The position numbers were made by a program, and so were the translations under genes. This document shows, one piece after another, positions 1,742-41,570 of a stretch of 64,000 nt of DNA. How positions within the stretch are numbered: the first letter of the stretch is position 1; each line of letters begins with the position of its first letter. Location of the stretch: UHGV virus genome UHGV-1373625, one strand, 5' to 3'. The notes beneath the pieces were generated by a model. The model did no database searches, had not been told where the DNA came from, and saw only the letters and a list, made by a program, of their open reading frames with translations. Origin of the DNA: a virus.

Positions 1742-2725
1742 TTAATCCACAAGGTTATAGGGGATTGCATCCCCGTCATTCGCCTTGAACAGGGTTGTTT
1801 TGCTGGTTGCGATATAGTACTGCGGATATGCAACACCATTTGTCACCTGAATCTTTTTCCTTATGAATTTCTTAGGGTTAAAGCCGCCGTTTTTCTTTGC
1901 TTCTTCCCGGATATAAGCTATGGTACTTGCTTCCAGACCTTGAATTTTTCCTGTCCCAGAGAAAGGGCTTTCGGGATCTGGCTGGTACGGTATTTGCTTC
2001 ATGATAGCGCACTTCCCAGAATCAGAGAATGCAACTATCTGGAAAATATGGGGAATGGTCATATTGTAGCCCCATGAGCCAGCAAAGATATCTCCGATAT
2101 GCAGGTCGGGAAGGAGATCATGGAGGCAAGGAACCTTTTCTATGTCACTGTACTTGTACACAGATTCTACCTTGTGACCACAGTAGAGATCCATTATATC
2201 CTTCATGATCTCCTTTTTGCGCTTTTCAAAGTAGGATTCAACGGGTTGATTTACTTCATACTTCACAGTAAGATCAAGAATCGTGTCCCAAACGTCAATA
2301 AATCCGCGCTCTTGGCAATTCGGGCATTCGATGTTCAGGAACGGCAAAAGAGGAGCAATCCAGTCATCAAGACAAGCATCCCCGTCCATGTCGAGCAGAA
2401 AAGTCAAGCGATTCAAGAGCTTGTCGGATACGGCCTTTGCCCCCGCTTCATCCCAAAAGGCAAAGTCAAGGATATCTACGAAAGAAATATTTTCGCTCTT
2501 TCGAGTATCATAATTGAATACAGTATAGGTTTCCCTATCGTCGCTTGCCTTCTTCACGATGCAAGCCCGGTGCAAGTAGTAGACAGGATCTCCATGCTCA
2601 AGGCGAAAGTTCACCTCTGCATAAATCCCACGAAAAAGGAAGTCAACCCCCTTTTCTGTGATCATGCGGTTATAGAAATCCCGGACGTAAGACTTAGGAG
2701 CTTTAACAGTAACGTAACTTCTCAT
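1742..2725 (-). CDS. hypothetical protein (327 aa)
   Basis: Long ORF with no recognisable motif. Confidence 0.55.
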   Translation of the reverse strand: MRSYVTVKAPKSYVRDFYNRMITEKGVDFLFRGIYAEVNFRLEHGDPVYYLHRACIVKKASDDRETYTVFNYDTRKSENISFVDILDFAFWDEAGAKAVSDKLLNRLTFLLDMDGDACLDDWIAPLLPFLNIECPNCQERGFIDVWDTILDLTVKYEVNQPVESYFEKRKKEIMKDIMDLYCGHKVESVYKYSDIEKVPCLHDLLPDLHIGDIFAGSWGYNMTIPHIFQIVAFSDSGKCAIMKQIPYQPDPESPFSGTGKIQGLEASTIAYIREEAKKNGGFNPKKFIRKKIQVTNGVAYPQYYIATSKTTLFKANDGDAIPYNLVD

Positions 2726-2771
2726 TTTGATAACCTCTTTAAATTTAACAGGATATGAAAAGAATTTTTAG

Positions 2772-3077
2772 TTAGATCCCGTGATACTTGCAAGCGTAAT
2801 CAAAAGGCCCCATTTCCAGCGGGATAAACTTTGTTGTAACTTCCCGCAAGCTACTATAAAAGCTTTTCTTTGCTGTAGCCTTTACTACGATTCCGCGAAC
2901 TTCCCCTTTTTCGCAATATGCTACGAAAATAGTGGATAAAGCGCAGTTGGATACATAAAGAACCTTGCTACCGCTCATTTGGAACAAGATATCAGCTTTT
3001 ACGGCCCTCGCTCTGGTATCTGCTACGATGTTCGATACTGTCCAGCCCATGATAAAACCTCTTTCGTTAAAGCTCAT
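2772..3077 (-). CDS. hypothetical protein
   Basis: 101-aa ORF. Confidence 0.45.
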   Translation of the reverse strand: MSFNERGFIMGWTVSNIVADTRARAVKADILFQMSGSKVLYVSNCALSTIFVAYCEKGEVRGIVVKATAKKSFYSSLREVTTKFIPLEMGPFDYACKYHGI

Positions 3078-6460: not shown

Positions 6461-6725
6461 TGCACGGGGATTTTCAACGATTGTTCAATAAATAACTATC
6501 AATACAATCAACTACTTACAACTTGGCATAAGTCTTGCATAGGTTGAGATTGGTTTGAGATTCTCCAATCATTTCAAGTATATGGGAGGGGGTAGGGTCA
6601 AAGTGTACCGCATTCCGGTATATAGTACCGTCGTTGACTCAAAAAAACATTTTTTTCGATTTCTGAGCTTTTATCCGGTTGTAATTATTCATGTAAATTT
6701 TTTAAACGAAATTTTAATAAAACTA

Positions 6726-6754
6726 TTGACAAAAAATCGTTTATGGATTAAGAT
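6726..6754 (+). promoter_or_regulatory. sigma70-like promoter TTGACA-17-TAAGAT upstream of terS
   Basis: -35 at 6726, 17-bp spacer, -10 at 6749. Confidence 0.4.
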
Positions 6755-6789
6755 TTTTACTAAATTTAACATAAAAAAGGAGAAAAACA

Positions 6790-7260
6790 TTGCGACGCCA
6801 AACAAAATCCATCGAAGCGCATAAGCAAGATGGTACATACAATTCTACGAAGCATGGAGTGGACGTTCCATTGGCGGAAGGACCGCTGAGGAAAATCAAT
6901 TGGGACAAGATGTCCTCGGAAGATATTTATAACACGATTGCTGATGTTATCGCACAGAAGGGCCTTGACCACGCTGAATACTCTCTGGCTTTGGAACTCC
7001 TAGTTTATGCGGTGAATAGGATGCTTAAACTCCGCAGGGATTTGAAAGCCCAAGGCGGCGAGACATATATTACGCCGTCAGGTATCAGGAAAAACAATCC
7101 TACTGCGAAACTTGTTATGGAAGCAGAAAAGCAAGTTGATACCCTTCTACAAAGATTTGGGCTCACGCCGGATTCTCGTAGCCGAGTAGCTAGGAAGAAG
7201 GGAGAACTTAATCTAGGGGGTGAAGATTCTTTCGGATCTCCGGAAGGTTTCTTCAATTAA
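6790..7260 (+). CDS. terS: Phage terminase small subunit, P27 family
   Basis: Motifs TPSGIRKNNPTAKL and FGLTPDSRSR are characteristic of P27-family TerS; TTG start with aaaaaggag RBS. Confidence 0.7.
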   Translation: MRRQTKSIEAHKQDGTYNSTKHGVDVPLAEGPLRKINWDKMSSEDIYNTIADVIAQKGLDHAEYSLALELLVYAVNRMLKLRRDLKAQGGETYITPSGIRKNNPTAKLVMEAEKQVDTLLQRFGLTPDSRSRVARKKGELNLGGEDSFGSPEGFFN

Positions 7261-7293
7261 ACCAATAATTTAAAAATATTTTAAAAAAAGTAG

Positions 7294-7321
7294 TTGACAA
7301 GTATAAAAATCTAAGTATAAT
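7294..7321 (+). promoter_or_regulatory. Near-consensus sigma70 promoter TTGACA-16-TATAAT driving the tRNA cluster
   Basis: ttgacaagtataaaaatctaagtataat. Confidence 0.55.
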
Positions 7322-7494
7322 CTATTTCAGTAAAAGGTGTTGTTGGCTACATGGAAAAGCTACGCTTTCGAGCGTTACCGTATGTTCGACTCATATGGGC
7401 ACCATCAAAAAGATAGACTCGTATTTCAATTGATGGAAAGTAAGTCTGTAACCGAGAAAATGCGGGCTTAAATCCTATCGAGTCTATCATTATG

Positions 7495-7571
7495 CGACCG
7501 TAACTCAATTGGCAAGAGTAGCCGACTTTTAATTGGCAAGTTATGGGTTCAAGCCCCATCGGTCGCACCAT
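7495..7571 (+). tRNA. tRNA-Lys (anticodon UUU)
   Basis: Manual fold: acceptor gcgaccg/cggtcgc, D-stem actc/gagt, anticodon stem gccga/ttggc with loop cTTTtaa, T-arm atggg-TTCAAGC-cccat, discriminator A, encoded CCA. Confidence 0.8.
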
Positions 7572-30956: not shown

Positions 30957-32006
30957 ATGTCTATTCTCAAGTCCAAGGTTTCCGTTATCCGTTTTATCAC
31001 CGAAGTTGAAGATAATCTTGAAACTATCATCAATGGGCTTAACGCCGCACGTTTTCAGGAAAAGTGGGAAGCGGGAATGGATTCCATGCAAGGCTTCTGC
31101 CCCCTTAATGACCGTTGGGGCTCCTCTGATTTCCACGAAGGTAACATCAAGGCGAATGGGTTTATTGCATTCTTTTTCCGTACTGACACTAAGCGGGTAG
31201 ATCCCAATCTTCTCAAGCGTGAAATTTCTGACCGGATTGAGCGTTTCTCCGAAACTTATGGAAAGAAACCCAATCGTGAAGAACGTAAGGACATTCAGGT
31301 CATTGTGAAGAACAAACTGCTCAATGAAGAAAAAGCCAAGCCCTCTTTCTATCCGGTCATGTTTAATCCCGAAACAGGGGAAGGGTATCTTTTCGCTACT
31401 TCCAATAGTGTCTTTGAGAAGTTCCGGGCGTCGTTCAAGTTGGTCGCCGGGATTCCAAATGTTAAGAATCTCGAAGAAATTGTGGAATCTCGAAACCTTG
31501 ATTTCACAGTCGATAGCCAGACGTTCCTGACGTGGTTCTGGTGGCGCATGGAGAATGATCCCACCAAACCTGTCACCACCGAGAATACTTCCTACGAATG
31601 CTCCATGAGCGGCACTGTAACGGTAAGTTCGGCGGAAACCGGGGAGAAGGTCACGGAGAAGTCGGACCAGCTTCACGAGGCTCGTATGGCCCTTCTGCGT
31701 GGTCTTCGTGCGGAAAAGGCAGCGGTTACTTGCTGCGCTGGCTCCGGCATCAATATTGAGTTTACTTTGAATAATGAAAGCCTCAATATTTCCGGGCTCC
31801 CCATTCCTAAGTCCGAGGAAAAGCCGAGCGACGTGTTTGAAGAATTTGAACATGCGAAGATTCATATTGATGAAGCTTTTGCTCTTATTGATTCTTTGAT
31901 GGAGGAATATATTGAGCTTAATGCGGTAGGCGACCCGCTGCCTCCTACTCCGCTTATTCATTGGGGTCGTGGGGATTTTTGTTCCGGAAGCATTGAAATT
32001 CTGTAA
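30957..32006 (+). CDS. hypothetical protein, possibly RdgC-like recombination-associated
   Basis: 349 aa; loose pattern similarity to RdgC from memory; preferred over the R-rich antisense ORF 30939-32027. Confidence 0.5.
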   Translation: MSILKSKVSVIRFITEVEDNLETIINGLNAARFQEKWEAGMDSMQGFCPLNDRWGSSDFHEGNIKANGFIAFFFRTDTKRVDPNLLKREISDRIERFSETYGKKPNREERKDIQVIVKNKLLNEEKAKPSFYPVMFNPETGEGYLFATSNSVFEKFRASFKLVAGIPNVKNLEEIVESRNLDFTVDSQTFLTWFWWRMENDPTKPVTTENTSYECSMSGTVTVSSAETGEKVTEKSDQLHEARMALLRGLRAEKAAVTCCAGSGINIEFTLNNESLNISGLPIPKSEEKPSDVFEEFEHAKIHIDEAFALIDSLMEEYIELNAVGDPLPPTPLIHWGRGDFCSGSIEIL

Positions 32007-32020
32007 GCATGGAGGATATA

Positions 32021-32212
32021 ATGGCAAAAGGAACTTTCAGGGTAGTAGAAAAAATTTGTCCTTTCTTGAATGCGCCTTGTAAAGAAAAGAGGTGTATGAT
32101 GTGGGATGAAAAATATTTAGTCTGCCAATTGGCTTATCCAGCGAAACGTAGGGTGAAAGGCGAAAGTATACAGCCGCTTTATCTAAATCACATAAACATG
32201 GAAACGAAATAA
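32021..32212 (+). CDS. Small Cys-containing hypothetical protein
   Basis: Start at MAKGTF with ggagga RBS. Confidence 0.4.
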   Translation: MAKGTFRVVEKICPFLNAPCKEKRCMMWDEKYLVCQLAYPAKRRVKGESIQPLYLNHINMETK

Positions 32213-32222
32213 ATAAAAAAAA

Positions 32223-32260
32223 GATACCAGCGTTTGTTAAAAATTCTGGTATCTTTTTTA
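32223..32260 (+). terminator. Rho-independent terminator (agataccag..ctggtatct + TTTTTTA)
   Basis: 9-bp perfect stem followed by a T-tract directly upstream of the polymerase gene. Confidence 0.7.
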
Positions 32261-32271
32261 ATAAAGGAGGC

Positions 32272-33633
32272 ATGATGAAATCCGTAATTGACTTTGAAAC
32301 AAGATCCCCTGTAGATATTAAAACTTGCGGAGCTTACGCATATGCTGCGCACCCTGATACTGAGGTGATGATGCTTGCCGTCCGTATATGTGGACAGGAG
32401 GCTCGCGTATGGGTAGCTCCGGCATATAGGCATTTTCTTGATACTGAATTGAGTGACGATGAATTGCAGGATATTATTAATAATTGTGAAGAGATTGCAG
32501 CACATAACGCCCCTTTCGAAAGAGCCATTTGGAAATTCAAGATGGAGCCTCTCTGGTTTAAGCCATTGCCATTAGAGAAAATTCGATGCACGATGTCTCA
32601 GGCCCTTATGTGCAACCTCCCCCGTAAACTGGAACAAGCGGTAAAGGTTTGGCGAAAAGACGCCCCTCAGAAGGATAATGAAGGGCATAAGCTGATGATG
32701 AAAATGTCAAAGCCTAGGAAGTTCCGTAAAGCCGAGCTTTCCGCGTTTCCTGATCCCGAAAAGGCTAAGGCTACTCAAGAATACGTCTATGCTGTACTTT
32801 CAAAAGGTGGCATTCCTACCATTAAAAACTACCATCAATATATTGTCTATCCTTGCGACGAGCCAATGTTTAAACGATATGTTGAATATTGTCGACAGGA
32901 CGTGGTTGCGGAAGAAGTTCTTTTTACGGAGCTTCCTCCTATCCCTGAGCGGGAGCTTAAAGTGTGGCGGCTTGACCAGACAATCAATGACCGTGGAGTA
33001 GGAATTGACAGGTTTCATGCGGTCAAAATTATGGATATGGTTAATAAAGTAGAAGATATTTTGACGGAGGAAGCTTCTGAGATTACGTATGGGGCGGTAT
33101 CGACTATGAAGTCTTCTAAGGCTATTATTGAATGGCTACAATCTCGTGGGGTTGATACTGATTCGGCAAGCAAGCAAGCTATCTCCGACCTTCTTGAACG
33201 GACTGATCTCCCCTCTGATGTTCGTAGATTCCTTGAGATTCGCCAGACTATTGCCATGTCTTCTACGGCAAAATATCAGACCATGCTCTGTACTTCATGC
33301 TATGATGGCAGGGCGCATGGAACGATGATTTATCATGGCGCTTCAACTGGAAGGTTTTGTCTTTCGGAAGGGTCTATGGTCAAAGTTTGTGATGATGCAG
33401 GTTGTGTTTATGAAAAGCCTATCGAAAATGTTGACAGATCAGAAAAAGTATGGGATGGTTCGGATTGGGTCTATCACGATGGTGTAGTTTTTTCAGGAGA
33501 TAAACCCGTTATTGAATGGGATGGGATTGTTGCTACAGAAGAACATAAAGTTTTTATTTCAGATACAGAAAAAATGTCTCTTTTAGAAGCCAAGGAAAGA
33601 GAACTTAAACTCTGGCAAGGAGAGAAACCCTAA
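32272..33633 (+). CDS. Family-A DNA polymerase, N-terminal half (3'-5' exonuclease plus start of the polymerase domain) ending in a split-intein N-fragment
   Basis: IDFETRS Exo I motif; ...IYHGASTGRF then CLSEGSMVKV...TEEHKVF...ERELKL (91 aa) resembles DnaE-type N-inteins; stop TAA overlaps the next ATG (TAATG). Confidence 0.8.
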   Translation: MMKSVIDFETRSPVDIKTCGAYAYAAHPDTEVMMLAVRICGQEARVWVAPAYRHFLDTELSDDELQDIINNCEEIAAHNAPFERAIWKFKMEPLWFKPLPLEKIRCTMSQALMCNLPRKLEQAVKVWRKDAPQKDNEGHKLMMKMSKPRKFRKAELSAFPDPEKAKATQEYVYAVLSKGGIPTIKNYHQYIVYPCDEPMFKRYVEYCRQDVVAEEVLFTELPPIPERELKVWRLDQTINDRGVGIDRFHAVKIMDMVNKVEDILTEEASEITYGAVSTMKSSKAIIEWLQSRGVDTDSASKQAISDLLERTDLPSDVRRFLEIRQTIAMSSTAKYQTMLCTSCYDGRAHGTMIYHGASTGRFCLSEGSMVKVCDDAGCVYEKPIENVDRSEKVWDGSDWVYHDGVVFSGDKPVIEWDGIVATEEHKVFISDTEKMSLLEAKERELKLWQGEKP

Positions 33634-35549
33634 TGCGTACTTATGACATACTTAATGCTGGCCCTAAAAATAGATTTATGGCGAATGGTAAAATCGTAAG
33701 TAATTCAGGTGCTCTTATTCAACCGCAAAATTTGACTAGACCTTCAACAAATAATATGAATATCCCCGAAGGTTCCAAGCCTTTGGATAATTATGATATC
33801 AGTGAAATGGATATCGAACTTGCAGCTAGCGGGAATTTAGATCTTATCCAGCAGTATTGGAAAGACCCTAAAGTCCTTGCCTCCGATTGCCTTCGCGCAA
33901 TGATTCACGCTAGAAAAGGATACGATTTTATCTGTGCCGACTATAGTGGGATTGAAGCCCGAGCATTGGCATGTCTCGCTGGCGAAGAGTATGTTCTTCA
34001 AGGTTTTAGGGACGGCCTTGACCCATATAAAGTTGCAGCTACGACTATCTATGGGGTGAAATATGAAGATGTGGATAAGAAGCAGCGTCAAGTAGGTAAG
34101 ACGGCTACGTTGGCTTGCTTCTCTGCGGATACAATGGTTTATACGAGCTATGGAATAAAAAAAATCGTCGACATAACTAAAGATGATTATGTATGGGATG
34201 GAGAAAACTGGTGTTTGACAGATGGAGCATATTGCCAAGGTATTAAAGAAATCGTTAATTTTTTGGGAGTAGAATCTACACCTGATCAAAAATGGTTGAT
34301 GGATGAAAATATTTGGATAGACTCCGATGCAGCTATTGAATTGTGTAAATGGCTAGGAGATGGGAAAGTTTATTCTAGCGAGCAATATCAAATATTCTCT
34401 AGTTGGGTTAGTTATCAAATCTCAAAAGTTCAAGATAAAATTATTTATAGTTTGAAGAAATACCCAGTAAAAGTAACTATAGCTGAAATGGGAATTGAAG
34501 TAATTCTTTCCGATTTTGACGAAGATGACTTTAATGTATCCTTTGTTGATTCTAAAAGTAGAAAAGGTGTTTATGTATACTTGGGTGAAAGCTTAAGGAA
34601 CACGAGTCTTGAAGATAAAGTTAAATATGTATGCTCCATTATCGTCTTTTTAGCTACGATTTTTTCTAAGTATTCAACAGCTCAAAATTATCTGAATATT
34701 AAAGTGAGTGAAGCCGTTATTAAGGACTATAATAAAATAAATATGGCGATTTTAAAGTTTATCAAAAAAGATGATAGCGATGAAATTATTCTTACTGGGA
34801 GCATTTTATCTAATAGAGATGGTTATACTAAAATAGAAAAAGTTTATGATCTTTTGAATTGTGGAGATAAAAGCAGGTTTATGATACATACATCCTGCGG
34901 TCCACGCATTGTGCATAACTGTGGATATGGAGGTGGTTATGGCGCGTTCCTTCGCTTTGGGGCTGATAGAATGGGCATTGATGAAGAGGAAGGAAAGAAG
35001 ATTATTGCTGCATGGAGAGACGGGCACCCAATGACGGTTAAGCTTTGGCACAAACTCGTTGAAGCTGCTGTCATGGCTATGACGAATAAGGGCGGAATTT
35101 ATTCTTATCGTGGAGTATCATTCCAATACTATAAGAGATTCCTCCTTATGAAGCTCCCTAGTGGCAGGTTCCTCTTCTACTTCGAGCCTAAACTTGAAGA
35201 CGTGGAGATGGCATGGTCTACGCCAGAAAAGCCAGCGTTCAAGAAGCTTGTTACGGCGATGACCTTGACGCCAGAAAAACAATTTGTGAGAAGGCCGCTT
35301 AACCATCTCATACTTTCAGAAAATGTTACACAAGCTTTCTGTAGAGATCTGATGGTGAATGCGATGTTCAATCTCGAAGAAGCCAATTATCCGGTAGTGT
35401 TTCATGTTCATGATGAAATCATTGCGGAAGTTCCTAAAGGGTTTGGGTCTGTCGAGGAATTTGAAAATATCATGTGCAAGCTTCCTCAATGGGCAGAAGG
35501 TCTGCCAGTAAAGGCCGAAGGATGGAGGGGAGAATTTTATAGGAAATAA
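33633..35549 (+). CDS. Family-A DNA polymerase, C-terminal half: 24-aa split-intein C-fragment, then palm/fingers (motifs A, B, C), interrupted by a second, contiguous 268-aa intein
   Basis: MRTYDILNAGPKNRFMANGKIVSN|S matches intein blocks F/G; extein motifs QPQNLTRP, CADYSGIEARALA (A), RQVGKTATLA-[intein]-CGYGGGYG (B), HVHDEI (C). Confidence 0.8.
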   Translation: MRTYDILNAGPKNRFMANGKIVSNSGALIQPQNLTRPSTNNMNIPEGSKPLDNYDISEMDIELAASGNLDLIQQYWKDPKVLASDCLRAMIHARKGYDFICADYSGIEARALACLAGEEYVLQGFRDGLDPYKVAATTIYGVKYEDVDKKQRQVGKTATLACFSADTMVYTSYGIKKIVDITKDDYVWDGENWCLTDGAYCQGIKEIVNFLGVESTPDQKWLMDENIWIDSDAAIELCKWLGDGKVYSSEQYQIFSSWVSYQISKVQDKIIYSLKKYPVKVTIAEMGIEVILSDFDEDDFNVSFVDSKSRKGVYVYLGESLRNTSLEDKVKYVCSIIVFLATIFSKYSTAQNYLNIKVSEAVIKDYNKINMAILKFIKKDDSDEIILTGSILSNRDGYTKIEKVYDLLNCGDKSRFMIHTSCGPRIVHNCGYGGGYGAFLRFGADRMGIDEEEGKKIIAAWRDGHPMTVKLWHKLVEAAVMAMTNKGGIYSYRGVSFQYYKRFLLMKLPSGRFLFYFEPKLEDVEMAWSTPEKPAFKKLVTAMTLTPEKQFVRRPLNHLILSENVTQAFCRDLMVNAMFNLEEANYPVVFHVHDEIIAEVPKGFGSVEEFENIMCKLPQWAEGLPVKAEGWRGEFYRK

Positions 35550-35638
35550 TTTTAAAAAATCTGTTGACATTTGCTTCCGGTTAATGAATACTCCATTCAT
35601 CGGAAGCAAACATTTTTAGAAAGAAGGAGTGTAAGAGA

Positions 35639-36760
35639 ATGTTTGAAGTAAAAGGATCAGTAAGTACAGCTAAGGTTTTCACAGATTATGTGGAGCCGAC
35701 CGCGTTATCTCAGATTATTGAATTATGTAATCAGGAGTTCACCGAAGGAAGTAAAATCCGTATTATGCCTGATGTACATGCTGGTGCTGGATGCGTTATT
35801 GGAACGACGATGACCATTGAAAATAAGAAAATCGTTCCTAATCTTGTCGGTGTTGATATCGGTTGTGGGCTACTGTCCTGTGAATTTACTTTGGGGGATA
35901 AGCTCAACAATAGCTTTTTTGAAGAAGTTGATCGAATTATTCGAAAGTATATTCCCGCAGGATTTAATATTCGTAACGACAAGCATGAATTGGTTAGCGC
36001 CATCAATTTGAATACGCTTGCATGTTGTAATGAAGTTAATATCGCTCGTGCGGAGCACAGTATTGGGACTTTGGGGGGAGGGAATCATTTTATTGAAATA
36101 GGGGAATCCGATAATTTCGATGGTACTTTTTCTTATTTCCTTACCGTACATTCTGGTTCTAGAAATATTGGAAAAGAAGTAGCTACTTATTATCAAAATG
36201 TCGCTATTAAGGAATGTCCGGGCACCCCCAAACATCTAGCGTATCTTTCAGGGGAGATGTTCGATGAATATATGTATGATATGGAAATCATGAAATATTA
36301 TGCCTCTTTGAATCGTGAGGCGATCATTAACGATATCACGCTACACATTGGGATTAAGAAAGACGATGTCTATGAAACCGTTCATAACTATATAGAACGT
36401 ATTGACAATGATGTGTTCATGCTGCGCAAGGGAGCCGTTTCCGCTAAAAAAGAACAGGCTCTTATGATCCCTTTGAATATGAGAGACGGTATTATTTTTG
36501 GTTTTGGTAAAGGACTTGAAGACTGGAACTATTCCGCACCTCATGGAGCTGGACGTAGACTAAGCAGAGGTGAAGCCAAGCGCAGCCTTGATATGAATGA
36601 TTTTAAAAATGAAATGGAAGGTATTTATTCTTCTTGCGTAAATATTTCTACTCTTGATGAAAGTCCTATGGCATACAAGGATGGCTCAGAGATTCGTAAT
36701 AATCTTCAATCGGTGGAAACCTTGTTTACTATTAAGCCAGTATATAACTTTAAAGCATAA
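35639..36760 (+). CDS. rtcB: RtcB-family RNA 3'-phosphate ligase
   Basis: MPDVHAGAGCVIGTT (RtcB PDxHxGxG metal site) and the general RtcB layout; 373 aa. Confidence 0.7.
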   Translation: MFEVKGSVSTAKVFTDYVEPTALSQIIELCNQEFTEGSKIRIMPDVHAGAGCVIGTTMTIENKKIVPNLVGVDIGCGLLSCEFTLGDKLNNSFFEEVDRIIRKYIPAGFNIRNDKHELVSAINLNTLACCNEVNIARAEHSIGTLGGGNHFIEIGESDNFDGTFSYFLTVHSGSRNIGKEVATYYQNVAIKECPGTPKHLAYLSGEMFDEYMYDMEIMKYYASLNREAIINDITLHIGIKKDDVYETVHNYIERIDNDVFMLRKGAVSAKKEQALMIPLNMRDGIIFGFGKGLEDWNYSAPHGAGRRLSRGEAKRSLDMNDFKNEMEGIYSSCVNISTLDESPMAYKDGSEIRNNLQSVETLFTIKPVYNFKA

Positions 36761-37425: not shown

Positions 37426-38181
37426 ATGTATGGATATGTTTATTGTACAACAAATTTAATAACGGGTTGTATGTATATAGGTAGACACGCATCTAGTGTA
37501 TTCGATGAAAAGTATTTTGGCTCGGGAAAGATACTAAAACGAGCTATAAAAAAATATGGAGAGAATAATTTTTCTATAGAGATACTTTGCGAAGCGGAGT
37601 CTTATGAAGATTTAGCTGAGAAAGAACGATATTATATAGCATTATCAGATGCGGTAAACCGTAAAGATTTTTATAATATAGGCAGGGGAGGAGAGGGGTT
37701 CCCTTCTGGAGAAAATCACCCAAATTATGGTAAAAAAGGCAAGGACGCTTTTGGGTGGGGGAAAGTGCATACTGATAAATTTAAAGAATATATGTCGAGA
37801 ATACGAAAAGGTATGAAGTTTTCTTTTGACCATAAGCAAAAATTATCTCAAAAGAAATTAGGGGATGCTACATTAAATAAAGGAAGGCGTGTATCAGAAG
37901 ATACAAAGGCCAAATTATCTCAAATAAACAAAGATGCTCAATTAAATAGGAAAATGGGTATTAAGCAAAATGGTAGAATAAGGACTTTTCATGAGTTCTT
38001 ACACGGCTTTAAAGTTGCTATTTATTTTACAGATGGGTCGATTAAGACTTTTGATAGCATGAAAGCCTGTACGAGATACACTTCATTGAAACATAGGGTG
38101 CGCCACATAAATACTATAAAAAGGATTATTAATGGAGAGACATTACCTCCAGAAGGGGTGAGAAAAATATGCTATATTTAA
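37426..38181 (+). CDS. GIY-YIG homing endonuclease with NUMOD-type DNA-binding repeats
   Basis: GYVYCTTNLITGCMYIGRHA (GIY-YIG), catalytic R..E region, repeated K/H-rich NUMOD3-like motifs. Confidence 0.7.
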   Translation: MYGYVYCTTNLITGCMYIGRHASSVFDEKYFGSGKILKRAIKKYGENNFSIEILCEAESYEDLAEKERYYIALSDAVNRKDFYNIGRGGEGFPSGENHPNYGKKGKDAFGWGKVHTDKFKEYMSRIRKGMKFSFDHKQKLSQKKLGDATLNKGRRVSEDTKAKLSQINKDAQLNRKMGIKQNGRIRTFHEFLHGFKVAIYFTDGSIKTFDSMKACTRYTSLKHRVRHINTIKRIINGETLPPEGVRKICYI

Positions 38182-39327: not shown

Positions 39328-39386
39328 ATAGAAAATTGGGAAGGGGGCTTTAAGCCCCCTTAAACTAAAGTTATATGGAGATAAAT

Positions 39387-41570
39387 ATGGGAAAGAAGCC
39401 TAACATGATTATTAAGCGTGATGGTTCTAAAGTCCTTTTTGACCCCAAAAAGATTGAACTTGCTATTACTAAAGCTCTTATTTCGGAAGGGGTAGCTTCT
39501 ATTTTTACTGGAACTGCTCACGCTATTGCTGAATCTTTTGAAAGTGAAAATGAAACTCCAACGATTAAAGAAATTGAAGAATATGTTTTTAAGAGCCTTT
39601 GCGAGGCCGGGCTTCCTCTTGTAGCAAAAGCCTACGAAGGTTACAGGAGTATTCGAGAATTTCAACGCTCTGATCAATTTACCGATGAATCCATCCTTTC
39701 TATTGTAGCCGGAGGAACGGATGAGGACCTTCGAGATGAGAATAGTAATAAGAATGTCGCTACAGCGTCTACGCAACGAGACATGATCGCTGGTGAGGCT
39801 TCAAAAGATATTGCGATGCGGCACATGCTCCCCCCTCATGTTGTACAGGCCCATAAAGACGGGCTTATTCACTTCCATGATTTGGATTATGCTGTGCAGC
39901 GAATTTTTAACTGTTGTCTTGTTGATTTGCGTGGTCCATTTAAGGACGGAACCGTTATTAATAAGAAGATGATTGAGACTCCTAAGTCGTTCAGGACAGC
40001 CTGTACAGTCGCTACGCAGATCGTCCAACAGGTAGCGTGTGGACAATACGGTGGTCAGACTATTTCCCTCGCGCATCTCGCTCCGTATGTTAGGGTAAGC
40101 TACGAAAAGATTAAAAACCAAGTTAGAGAAGAACTTTTTGGGGATGATGTCCCTCTTGCGTCTCCCACTAAGCTTTGCGGGAATCGAGAAGTTGAGCATA
40201 TTGCCAAGAAGCGGCTTCGTAAAGAAATTGAGGATGGTTTACAAACCATTCAGTATCAGGTAAACACTTTTTCGACAAGTAATGGGCAAGCTCCGTTCCT
40301 TAGTATTTTCATGTATCTGAATGAAGATCCTGAATATATTGAAGAGACGGCAATGCTTATTGAAGAGATGATTAAGCAACGATACATCGGGATGAAGAAT
40401 GAAGCCGGAGTGTATGTTACCCCCGCGTTTCCTAAACTCCTGTATGTGCTTGATGAAAATAATGTTCCTAAAGATAGTAAGTATCGGTATCTGACAGATC
40501 TGGCGGTGAAATGTGTAGCTAGGCGTATGATGCCGGACTTCATTTCCGCAAAAAAGATGAAAGAAAATTATGAAGATGTTTTCCCCTGCATGGGATGCCG
40601 TTCTTTTCTTTCTCAATATAGAGATAAAGATGGCAAGCTGAAATGGTATAATAGATTCAATCAGGGTGTGGTAACTTTGAACCTTGCGGATGCAGGACTT
40701 TCCGCAGACGGTAATATTGACGCTTTCTGGAAAATCCTTGACGAGCGCCTTGAATTGGTTCATGATGGCCTCATGTGCAAACATAAGAGCCTTCTTGGTA
40801 CGAAGGCCGAAAAGTCTCCTATCCATTGGCAGCATGGAGTTATCGCTCGCCTTAAAAAAGATGATGTAATTGACCCATATTTGAAAGATGGGTATTCAAC
40901 TTTGTCTCTCGGATACATTGGGCTCCATGAATGCGTTCTTGCTCTTATCGGAGAATCACATACTACGGAACGTGGAGAAGAACTTGCTGTACGTATTATG
41001 CGTAGATTGAGAAAAGCTTGCGACGATTGGCGTGCAGAATCTGGTCTTGGATTCAGCTTGTACGGGTCGCCTTCCGAATCTACAACTTATCGTCTTGCAC
41101 AGACAACTCAGAAGCGATTTGGAGTGGTTAAGGGAATTACTGACCGAGATTATTTGACAAATTCATACCATGTTGATGTAACCGAAAAGATTAGTGCATT
41201 TGATAAACTTCGTTTTGAATCTCAATTTCAGAAAATTTCTTCCGGTGGCTGCATCAGCTATGTGGAAGTTCCGAATTTGGAGCAGAACCTCGAAGTGATT
41301 GATCAATTGGTTTCTTATATGTATGAAACTATTCAGTACGCTGAGATCAATACCAAATCGGACTATTGCGCTAAATGTGGATTTCGAGGAGAAATCAAAC
41401 TGAATAATAATCTTGATTGGGAATGTCCTCAGTGCCATACGGTAAATCGAGATGATCTTACTGTTTGCCGTAGAACTTGTGGCTACTTGGGCGATAATTT
41501 TTGGAACAAGGGACGAACCGAGGAAATCGGTGCCCGAGTATTGCATGTTGACAATGAAGACTTGAGCTGA
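39387..41570 (+). CDS. nrdD: Anaerobic ribonucleoside-triphosphate reductase (class III)
   Basis: C-terminal glycyl-radical region CRRTCGYLG and Zn ribbon CAKCG..CPQC; start at 39387 with ggaga RBS. Confidence 0.85.
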   Translation: MGKKPNMIIKRDGSKVLFDPKKIELAITKALISEGVASIFTGTAHAIAESFESENETPTIKEIEEYVFKSLCEAGLPLVAKAYEGYRSIREFQRSDQFTDESILSIVAGGTDEDLRDENSNKNVATASTQRDMIAGEASKDIAMRHMLPPHVVQAHKDGLIHFHDLDYAVQRIFNCCLVDLRGPFKDGTVINKKMIETPKSFRTACTVATQIVQQVACGQYGGQTISLAHLAPYVRVSYEKIKNQVREELFGDDVPLASPTKLCGNREVEHIAKKRLRKEIEDGLQTIQYQVNTFSTSNGQAPFLSIFMYLNEDPEYIEETAMLIEEMIKQRYIGMKNEAGVYVTPAFPKLLYVLDENNVPKDSKYRYLTDLAVKCVARRMMPDFISAKKMKENYEDVFPCMGCRSFLSQYRDKDGKLKWYNRFNQGVVTLNLADAGLSADGNIDAFWKILDERLELVHDGLMCKHKSLLGTKAEKSPIHWQHGVIARLKKDDVIDPYLKDGYSTLSLGYIGLHECVLALIGESHTTERGEELAVRIMRRLRKACDDWRAESGLGFSLYGSPSESTTYRLAQTTQKRFGVVKGITDRDYLTNSYHVDVTEKISAFDKLRFESQFQKISSGGCISYVEVPNLEQNLEVIDQLVSYMYETIQYAEINTKSDYCAKCGFRGEIKLNNNLDWECPQCHTVNRDDLTVCRRTCGYLGDNFWNKGRTEEIGARVLHVDNEDLS

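Follow-up and report, generated by a model that had tools for sequence, protein, structure and literature searches.

What is the segment of 804 nucleotides (nt) that splits motif B of a phage family A DNA polymerase in the virus genome UHGV-1373625, is it removed from the protein, and what fills its middle? The segment lies at 34116–34919 on the plus strand of the 64,000-nt stretch analysed here (the window), and its residues point to a class-1-type cis-splicing intein in the O-helix of the polymerase, referred to below as intein 2. Our overall reading, which we hold with a probability of about 0.85, is that this intein probably splices and that an orphan cassette at its centre is tolerated filler, leaving it with no nuclease of its own.

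The insert is in frame within the 638-amino-acid (aa) open reading frame (ORF) 33633–35549 and contributes 268 codons without a stop, from CFSADTMVYT to TSCGPRIVHN. It is flanked by VKYEDVDKKQRQVGKTATLA and CGYGGGYGAFLRF (longer upstream flank, KKQRQVGKTATLA) and divides motif B into an N-extein half, RQVGKTATLA (34086–34115), and a C-extein half, CGYGGGYGAF (34920–34949). Cys1 is encoded at 34116–34118, His267-Asn268 at 34914–34919 and Cys+1, the first residue of the C-extein and putative transesterification nucleophile, at 34920–34922, where empty alleles have C or L. The frame is not open by chance, since none of 20,000 shuffles of the central 166 codons (29.6% G+C, expected stop frequency 0.09 per codon) stayed open (P ~1e-7) and the other five frames across this part are full of stops.

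Alleles lacking the insert define its ends. The empty allele L005 matches the window ORF only over ORF nt 1–486 (97.9% DNA identity) and nt 1288–1917 (94.1%), hence the insert amounts to exactly 804 extra nt, the precise excision that a comparison with intein-free homologues was expected to reveal. The L005 junction reads ACGTTGGCT/TGYGGATAYGGAGGTGG (TGYGGATAY after the junction), with ambiguity limited to the Cys codon; the empty-site DNA is ACGTTGGCT/TGCGGATAYGGAGGTGG, within GTAGGTAAGACGGCTACGTTGGCTTGCGGATACGGAGGTGGTTACGGC in L005. Four homologues without the insert (P0011, P0012, P0014 and P0015) read KTATLA/CGYGGGYGAF (KQRQVGKTATLA/CGYGGGYGAFLR) and realign exactly at ATLA/CGYGGG, so that the boundaries proposed in the initial annotation hold to the exact coordinate. 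Presence and absence of the insert vary among polymerases that are 97–99% identical, which implies recent gain or loss.

Just downstream of the junction, alleles with the 268-aa intein differ from both the empty L005 and the HNH-type allele L003 (described below) by a cluster of synonymous changes at 34922, 34928, 34940, 34961 and 34964 (+3, +9, +21, +42 and +45), and the closest upstream difference is 91 nt from the junction. L004, which is also empty, agrees with the window at three of the five sites. The cluster could be a co-conversion tract or a mark of target-site immunity.

With the insert removed, the polymerase sequence is continuous across the site. The spliced protein aligns in one piece with intein-free phage polymerases over 98–100% of its length at ~35% identity, and the Pfam DNA_pol_A match, which ends at the insert in the unspliced ORF, crosses the junction once the insert is taken out. 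Motif B was likewise said to become intact on removal, and in the alignment with RQLAKAINFGLIYG of DNA polymerase I from a solved structure (8jrb) the spliced sequence indeed needs no gap. This alignment places the intein within the O-helix, two residues ahead of the invariant tyrosine of motif B; we take the assignment of the aligned site to motif B and the O-helix from established knowledge of family A polymerases.

The same site is occupied in many relatives. A search with the whole ORF gave 435 homologues, and of the best 120, aligned to the spliced protein, 26 run through the site uninterrupted and 85 carry an insert of 106–390 aa at the same residue, all with Cys first, [H/G/S]-Asn last and Cys following. 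True mini-inteins of 106–156 aa are found here in relatives. The insertion point is common among metagenomic relatives; we found no description of it in the literature, and a word-indexed protein search with the insert alone as query returned no match.

Aligned with 24 other inserts at this site (site B), the window insert shows blocks A (C1...T10), B (T55-P-D-x), F (VYD245-L-x-N-x-G...F) and G (IVHN). Its N-terminal splicing region comprises residues 1–72 (34116–34331; block A CFSADTMVYT, block B GVESTPDQKWL) and its C-terminal region residues 239–268 (34830–34919; block F VYDLLNCGDKSRF, block G PRIVHN). The features of a class-1 intein are a nucleophile at position 1 (Cys, Ser or Thr; here Cys1, invariant in the alignment), another at +1 (here Cys), a block F Asp (VYD245LLNCG), a penultimate His (His267) and a terminal Asn (Asn268), absence of the insertion to the residue from close homologues, and a Hint fold built from the N- and C-terminal parts. 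All of these are present; in the block B Thr-x-x-His motif, Thr55 is kept and the His is replaced by Gln58. With 268 aa and a 166-aa extra domain it is not a mini-intein, a type that consists of the splicing domain only and usually spans ~105–200 aa.

A profile of the site-B inteins matches solved inteins (DnaE, Neq Pol and DnaX) at E ~1e-3. Structure prediction, to which the initial annotation had looked for a Hint fold, supplied one from both ends of the insert: the AlphaFold model has a predicted local distance difference test score (pLDDT) of 89–98 over residues 1–70 and 94–97 over residues 241–268. The corresponding Foldseek match is weak (E 0.05) because the insert splits the Hint fold. 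Empty homologues, aligned blocks and the confident Hint parts together uphold the original identification as an intein.

Gln58 (34287–34289; TPDQ, not TPDH) sets this intein apart, as every other site-B intein in the alignment has His, and Gln at block B is a rare state for inteins. TPDQ occurs in all variants of this clade and is fixed even in sister alleles whose Hint DNA is 78–88% identical; such fixation across a diverged clade argues for an old, tolerated state and not a fresh inactivating mutation. Many inteins are reported to need the block B His, and a very small number of natural ones lack it and compensate for its loss (PMC6333167). Inteins of the Tko CDC21-1 type, in which the loss is natural (PMC6333167), resemble the window intein in their class-1 layout and non-His residue, but they belong to an unrelated host protein and lineage, and the −1 residue here is Ala, not a bulky one.

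Thirteen protein variants, which come from eight different samples, carry the intein in intact form, and it is found in all combinations with inteins 1 and 3 of the same polymerase. Its splicing parts have a ratio of non-synonymous to synonymous polymorphism (pN/pS) of 0.23 at the N-terminal end and 0 at the C-terminal end. From the essential site, the conserved nucleophiles and persistence across these variants and samples, we infer that intein 2 splices. ORF 33633–35549 would be translated as a precursor in which residues 1–72 and 239–268 fold into the Hint domain. To judge from the residues, a thioester would then form at Cys1, the N-extein would be transferred to Cys+1, and Asn268 would cyclise with the help of His267 to free the intein, after which the Ala-Cys peptide bond would re-form by an S-to-N shift, restoring RQVGKTATLACGYGGGYGAF and the O-helix. 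Activation in the first step would have to be compensated because the block B His is Gln, presumably as in the few known His-less inteins. The full polymerase should also need trans-splicing by split intein 1, joining ORFs 32272–33633 and 33633–35549.

The middle of the insert is best understood against sister inteins of 374 aa at the identical site of the same gene in near-identical metagenomic phages (P0002–P0010; loci L003 and L020), which share the TPDQ block B and have exteins 98–99% identical to those of the window. The L003 intein matches the window intein over nt 1–217 (87.6%) and nt 714–803 (83%), with nothing in common between; the L020 intein is 94.5% identical at the C-terminal end and 77.9% at the N-terminal end. 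Overall, DNA identity of the splicing ends is 78–88% at the N-terminal and 83–94.5% at the C-terminal side. Where the window has an unrelated 496-nt in-frame cassette, the sisters have an 815-nt middle which is the read-through frame of a hidden gene. Nested in the L003 intein, on the same strand and in another frame, is a 285-aa ORF (6660–7517) that matches the HNH endonuclease family phrog_374 (E 3e-28).

Such a gene was found in every large motif-B intein whose DNA was examined: L003, L020 (intein nt 144–1031), L014 (1723–2457), L015 (1634–2815) and the Jerseyvirus locus L001 (MN336265; 3093–3836), where the out-of-frame ORF has 247 aa and matches phrog_374 at E 5e-48. The intein frame stays open for 250–300 codons across the HNH ORF. 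Pfam recognised no HNH domain in the out-of-frame ORFs of relatives; PHROGs does. In the deposited Jerseyvirus genomes the out-of-frame HNH ORF is unannotated. A different layout is seen in L002 (2963–4000 and 3139–4713), where the N-terminal part ends in a stop and the HNH frame runs on into the C-terminal splicing part and the polymerase as one fusion (P0018). Two frameshifts separate L002 from L003; either the intein is decaying or has newly split, or the contig is misassembled.

In the window only the start of the hidden gene is left. At 34292–34306 it keeps the ATG of the L003 HNH ORF and three further codons followed by a stop (ATG GTT GAT GGA TGA; M-V-D-G-stop), out of frame with the intein, and the other frames are closed. 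The central cassette (residues 73–238, 166 aa; 34332–34829) is AT-rich and in frame, starts 40 nt downstream of the HNH ATG and extends precisely to the HNH stop codon, as judged against two different sister alleles (L003 and L020). By these breakpoints, the cassette (496 nt) stands in place of the endonuclease gene body. Between the two forms the Hint parts are only 78–88% identical at the N-terminal end against ~98–99% for the exteins, which, with the mixed ends of L020, marks the intein alleles as mosaic. Rather than arising from one another in place, they were exchanged between phages that are nearly identical.

The cassette is an orphan. It matched no Pfam, NCBIfam or PHROG family, nothing among PDB sequences better than E 0.35, and nothing in 50,697 phage genomes searched as DNA and as protein. 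When 1.84 billion representative proteins were scanned exhaustively with HMMER, the single match was P0121, a coiled-coil repeat protein of 1784 aa aligned in 13 separate stretches, which was rejected as spurious, and in IMG/VR the cassette occurs in four contigs only, all from the same phage. A full-length tblastn (~23% identity) had suggested a middle shared with Jerseyvirus; this was dropped, since the cassette alone has no phage match and the full-length alignments were therefore carried by the splicing ends. A junk-like middle is seen in another intein, the 287-aa one of P0045.

Most likely, though with less confidence than we attach to the intein itself, the cassette is a tolerated folded filler that stays open only because the polymerase must be read through. 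With similar reserve, we suggest that intein 2, having no nuclease of its own, may now spread only through vertical inheritance and through recombination between phages that circulate together, perhaps with the HNH enzyme of a sister allele acting in trans during mixed infections.

Several observations weigh against this reading. The intein lacks the block B His, reported as essential for many inteins (PMC6333167), and has Ala, a small residue, at −1. Pfam found no Hint or intein family in the insert and NCBIfam only intein_Nterm at E 0.035, hence the intein profiles of the hidden Markov model (HMM) search suggested in the initial annotation were nearly blind. That the cassette is filler is an argument from absence: it sits exactly in the endonuclease slot, as a replacement nuclease would, it is predicted to fold (alpha-beta4-alpha, pLDDT 66–74, though the alignment is uninformative there), and it is intact in every variant seen, with a pN/pS of 0.44 (below 1; 17 polymorphic codons, five DNA alleles). 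This value is looser than that of the splicing parts and is no different from what relaxed constraint combined with selection against stops could give.

The same facts are what a new family of in-frame homing nucleases or DNA-targeting domains, one that displaced the HNH gene and drives homing, would explain: the exact fit to the slot, integrity and pN/pS of 0.44 in all 13 variants, the alpha/beta fold, recent gain or loss in 97–99% identical polymerases, and the synonymous changes clustered at +3, +9, +21, +42 and +45. We consider this improbable. A relative is lacking among 1.84e9 representative proteins; free-standing homing endonucleases normally come from large families. The cassette matches no nuclease family in Pfam, PHROG or PDB, its isoelectric point (pI) of 5.6 and lack of any His are atypical for a DNA-binding nuclease (against a pI of 9.3 for the HNH), and the open frame is accounted for by the need to translate the polymerase. 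Modelled alone, the cassette reaches a pLDDT of 40, which makes its fold matches unreliable. An acidic strand followed by VDSK (ILSDFD, then FVDSK) resembles PD-(D/E)xK by eye; no tool supports it, and we keep it as a lead only.

A dead intein, in which splicing was lost with the block B His and the polymerase is either a pseudogene or tolerant of the insert, would account for Gln58 and for the weak intein HMM scores, but we find it hardly credible. The insert interrupts the O-helix only two residues away from the invariant Tyr, none of Cys1, His-Asn and Cys+1 has been lost, Gln is fixed across diverged alleles in many samples, the splicing parts are under purifying selection, and no second polymerase gene was seen near this locus.

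The suggestion that the middle is a degenerate LAGLIDADG endonuclease fared no better and is very unlikely to be right. It draws on a local resemblance of ELCKWLGDGKVY to the LAGLIDADG motif and nothing else, and ELCKWLGDGKVY lies right at the beginning of the swapped-in cassette, for which no relative was detected. At E ≤ 1 there was no match to a LAGLIDADG or Hom_end family of Pfam or NCBIfam, a second motif is missing, and 166 aa leave room for one half-site domain only. The predicted topology is a long helix, four strands and a long helix instead of alpha-beta-beta-alpha-beta-beta-alpha, the 60 best matches of the cassette-only model include no LAGLIDADG protein, and LAGLIDADG-containing inteins align to the model only over roughly Hint-sized stretches (111–140 residues). 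An RNA intron was dropped because no Rfam family matched at E ≤ 1 in 32000–36000 and the frame stays open.

That one polymerase carries two inteins of different architecture, as first proposed, was confirmed: intein 1 is naturally split into 91 and 24 aa. Its N-part (33358–33630) ends ORF 32272–33633 on the plus strand, which encodes the polymerase N-part (exonuclease and thumb) and closes with HGASTGRF/CLSEGSMV... and a stop. Its C-part (33633–33704) opens ORF 33633–35549, which encodes the fingers and palm with intein 2 and starts MRTYDILNAGPKNRFMANGKIVSN/SGALIQPQNL (MRTYDIL...IVSN/SGALIQ). Stop and start overlap as TAATG at 33631–33635, with AAGGAG ahead of the second ATG, and the penultimate residue of intein 1 is Ser, not His. 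Alleles without intein 1 (P0001 and P0014) have one continuous gene reading TGRF/AGALIQ, and distant relatives have contiguous inteins of 134–136 aa at this site. At +1, most empty alleles (P0001, P0014, P0015 and P0017) have Ala and the empty P0016 has Ser; occupied alleles have Ser, the nucleophile required for splicing. In L004 a 282-aa GIY-YIG gene (2153–3001) lies between the two halves, which is the ‘fractured gene’ arrangement of Dassa et al. 2009 (PMC2677866).

A third intein site, at 35325–35327 (the Val in NHLILSEN/VTQAFCRD), is empty in the window and is occupied by an intein of 140, 153 or 324 aa in near-identical polymerases (P0003, P0004, P0005, P0012, P0013 and P0123), which read SEN/CFSGETKV...PIIVHN/CTQAFC. 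Some empty alleles have Cys at +1 there (P0011), and the window has Val. Across near-identical polymerases, every combination of occupied and empty states occurs at the three sites.

Directly downstream of the polymerase lie genes for a free-standing GIY-YIG endonuclease (SegE-like, NUMOD3; 37426–38181) and an RtcB ligase (35639–36760), assigned by correspondence with L006, whose matching genes carry those Pfam families. Further on, ORF 39375–41570 encodes NrdD (731 aa), and its homologue in L002 carries an intein (981 aa).

The sole annotated relative found with the insert as query, at ~23% identity end to end, is the ‘intein-containing DNA polymerase precursor’ of Jerseyvirus (Salmonella phage), for example that of vB_SenS-EnJE6 (QGT52294.1; MN336265), also a family A polymerase with a motif-B intein bearing Cys1, His-Asn and Cys+1. 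Its insertion site lies four residues upstream (RQIGKA/C...HN/CELGLGYEGG against RQVGKTATLA/C...HN/CGYGGG), and it has the block B His and the 247-aa out-of-frame HNH ORF, both of which the window intein lacks. The mini- or split inteins gp41-1, NpuDnaB, MchDnaB-1 and NrdJ-1 (6riz, 4o1r, 6riy and 8ubs) are 10–26% identical to the window intein, interrupt different host proteins and have no 166-aa insert.

Non-canonical inteins with out-of-frame or antisense endonucleases were reported only in 2025 (Gosselin, Arsenault & Gogarten, bioRxiv 10.1101/2025.01.02.630785). Hint in the host frame and the nuclease in a second frame place the sister alleles in this class; an out-of-frame HNH within a true intein is not among the types listed there. 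The ShiLan insertion has a hidden out-of-frame HNH and no splicing domain (PMC11855218), whereas in the relatives of the window intein the HNH lies out of frame inside a true intein, and the window element has lost that ORF.

Two traits of the intein are unusual: Gln at the block B position normally held by His, and the orphan cassette that fills the endonuclease slot. To specialists the intein as such would be ordinary; the replacement of the HNH gene by the cassette and the polymorphism at three sites would be of moderate interest. For annotation, the polymerase comes from two ORFs and needs one trans- and one cis-splicing event, and gene callers that do not recognise the inteins will label it wrongly. 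The small and probably robust splicing domain could serve as a protein-engineering tool. Should the cassette be a new nuclease or targeting domain after all, the locus would show the exchange of endonuclease modules within one Hint scaffold caught in the act, and with it a new homing endonuclease family. For the biology of these phages, the lineage is a compact natural experiment, with three intein sites in all combinations and one Hint scaffold in two forms, in which three questions may be tested directly: how inteins gain and lose endonuclease modules, whether inteins without a nuclease are carried along by sister alleles, and how the N-terminal junction is activated when block B has Gln for His.

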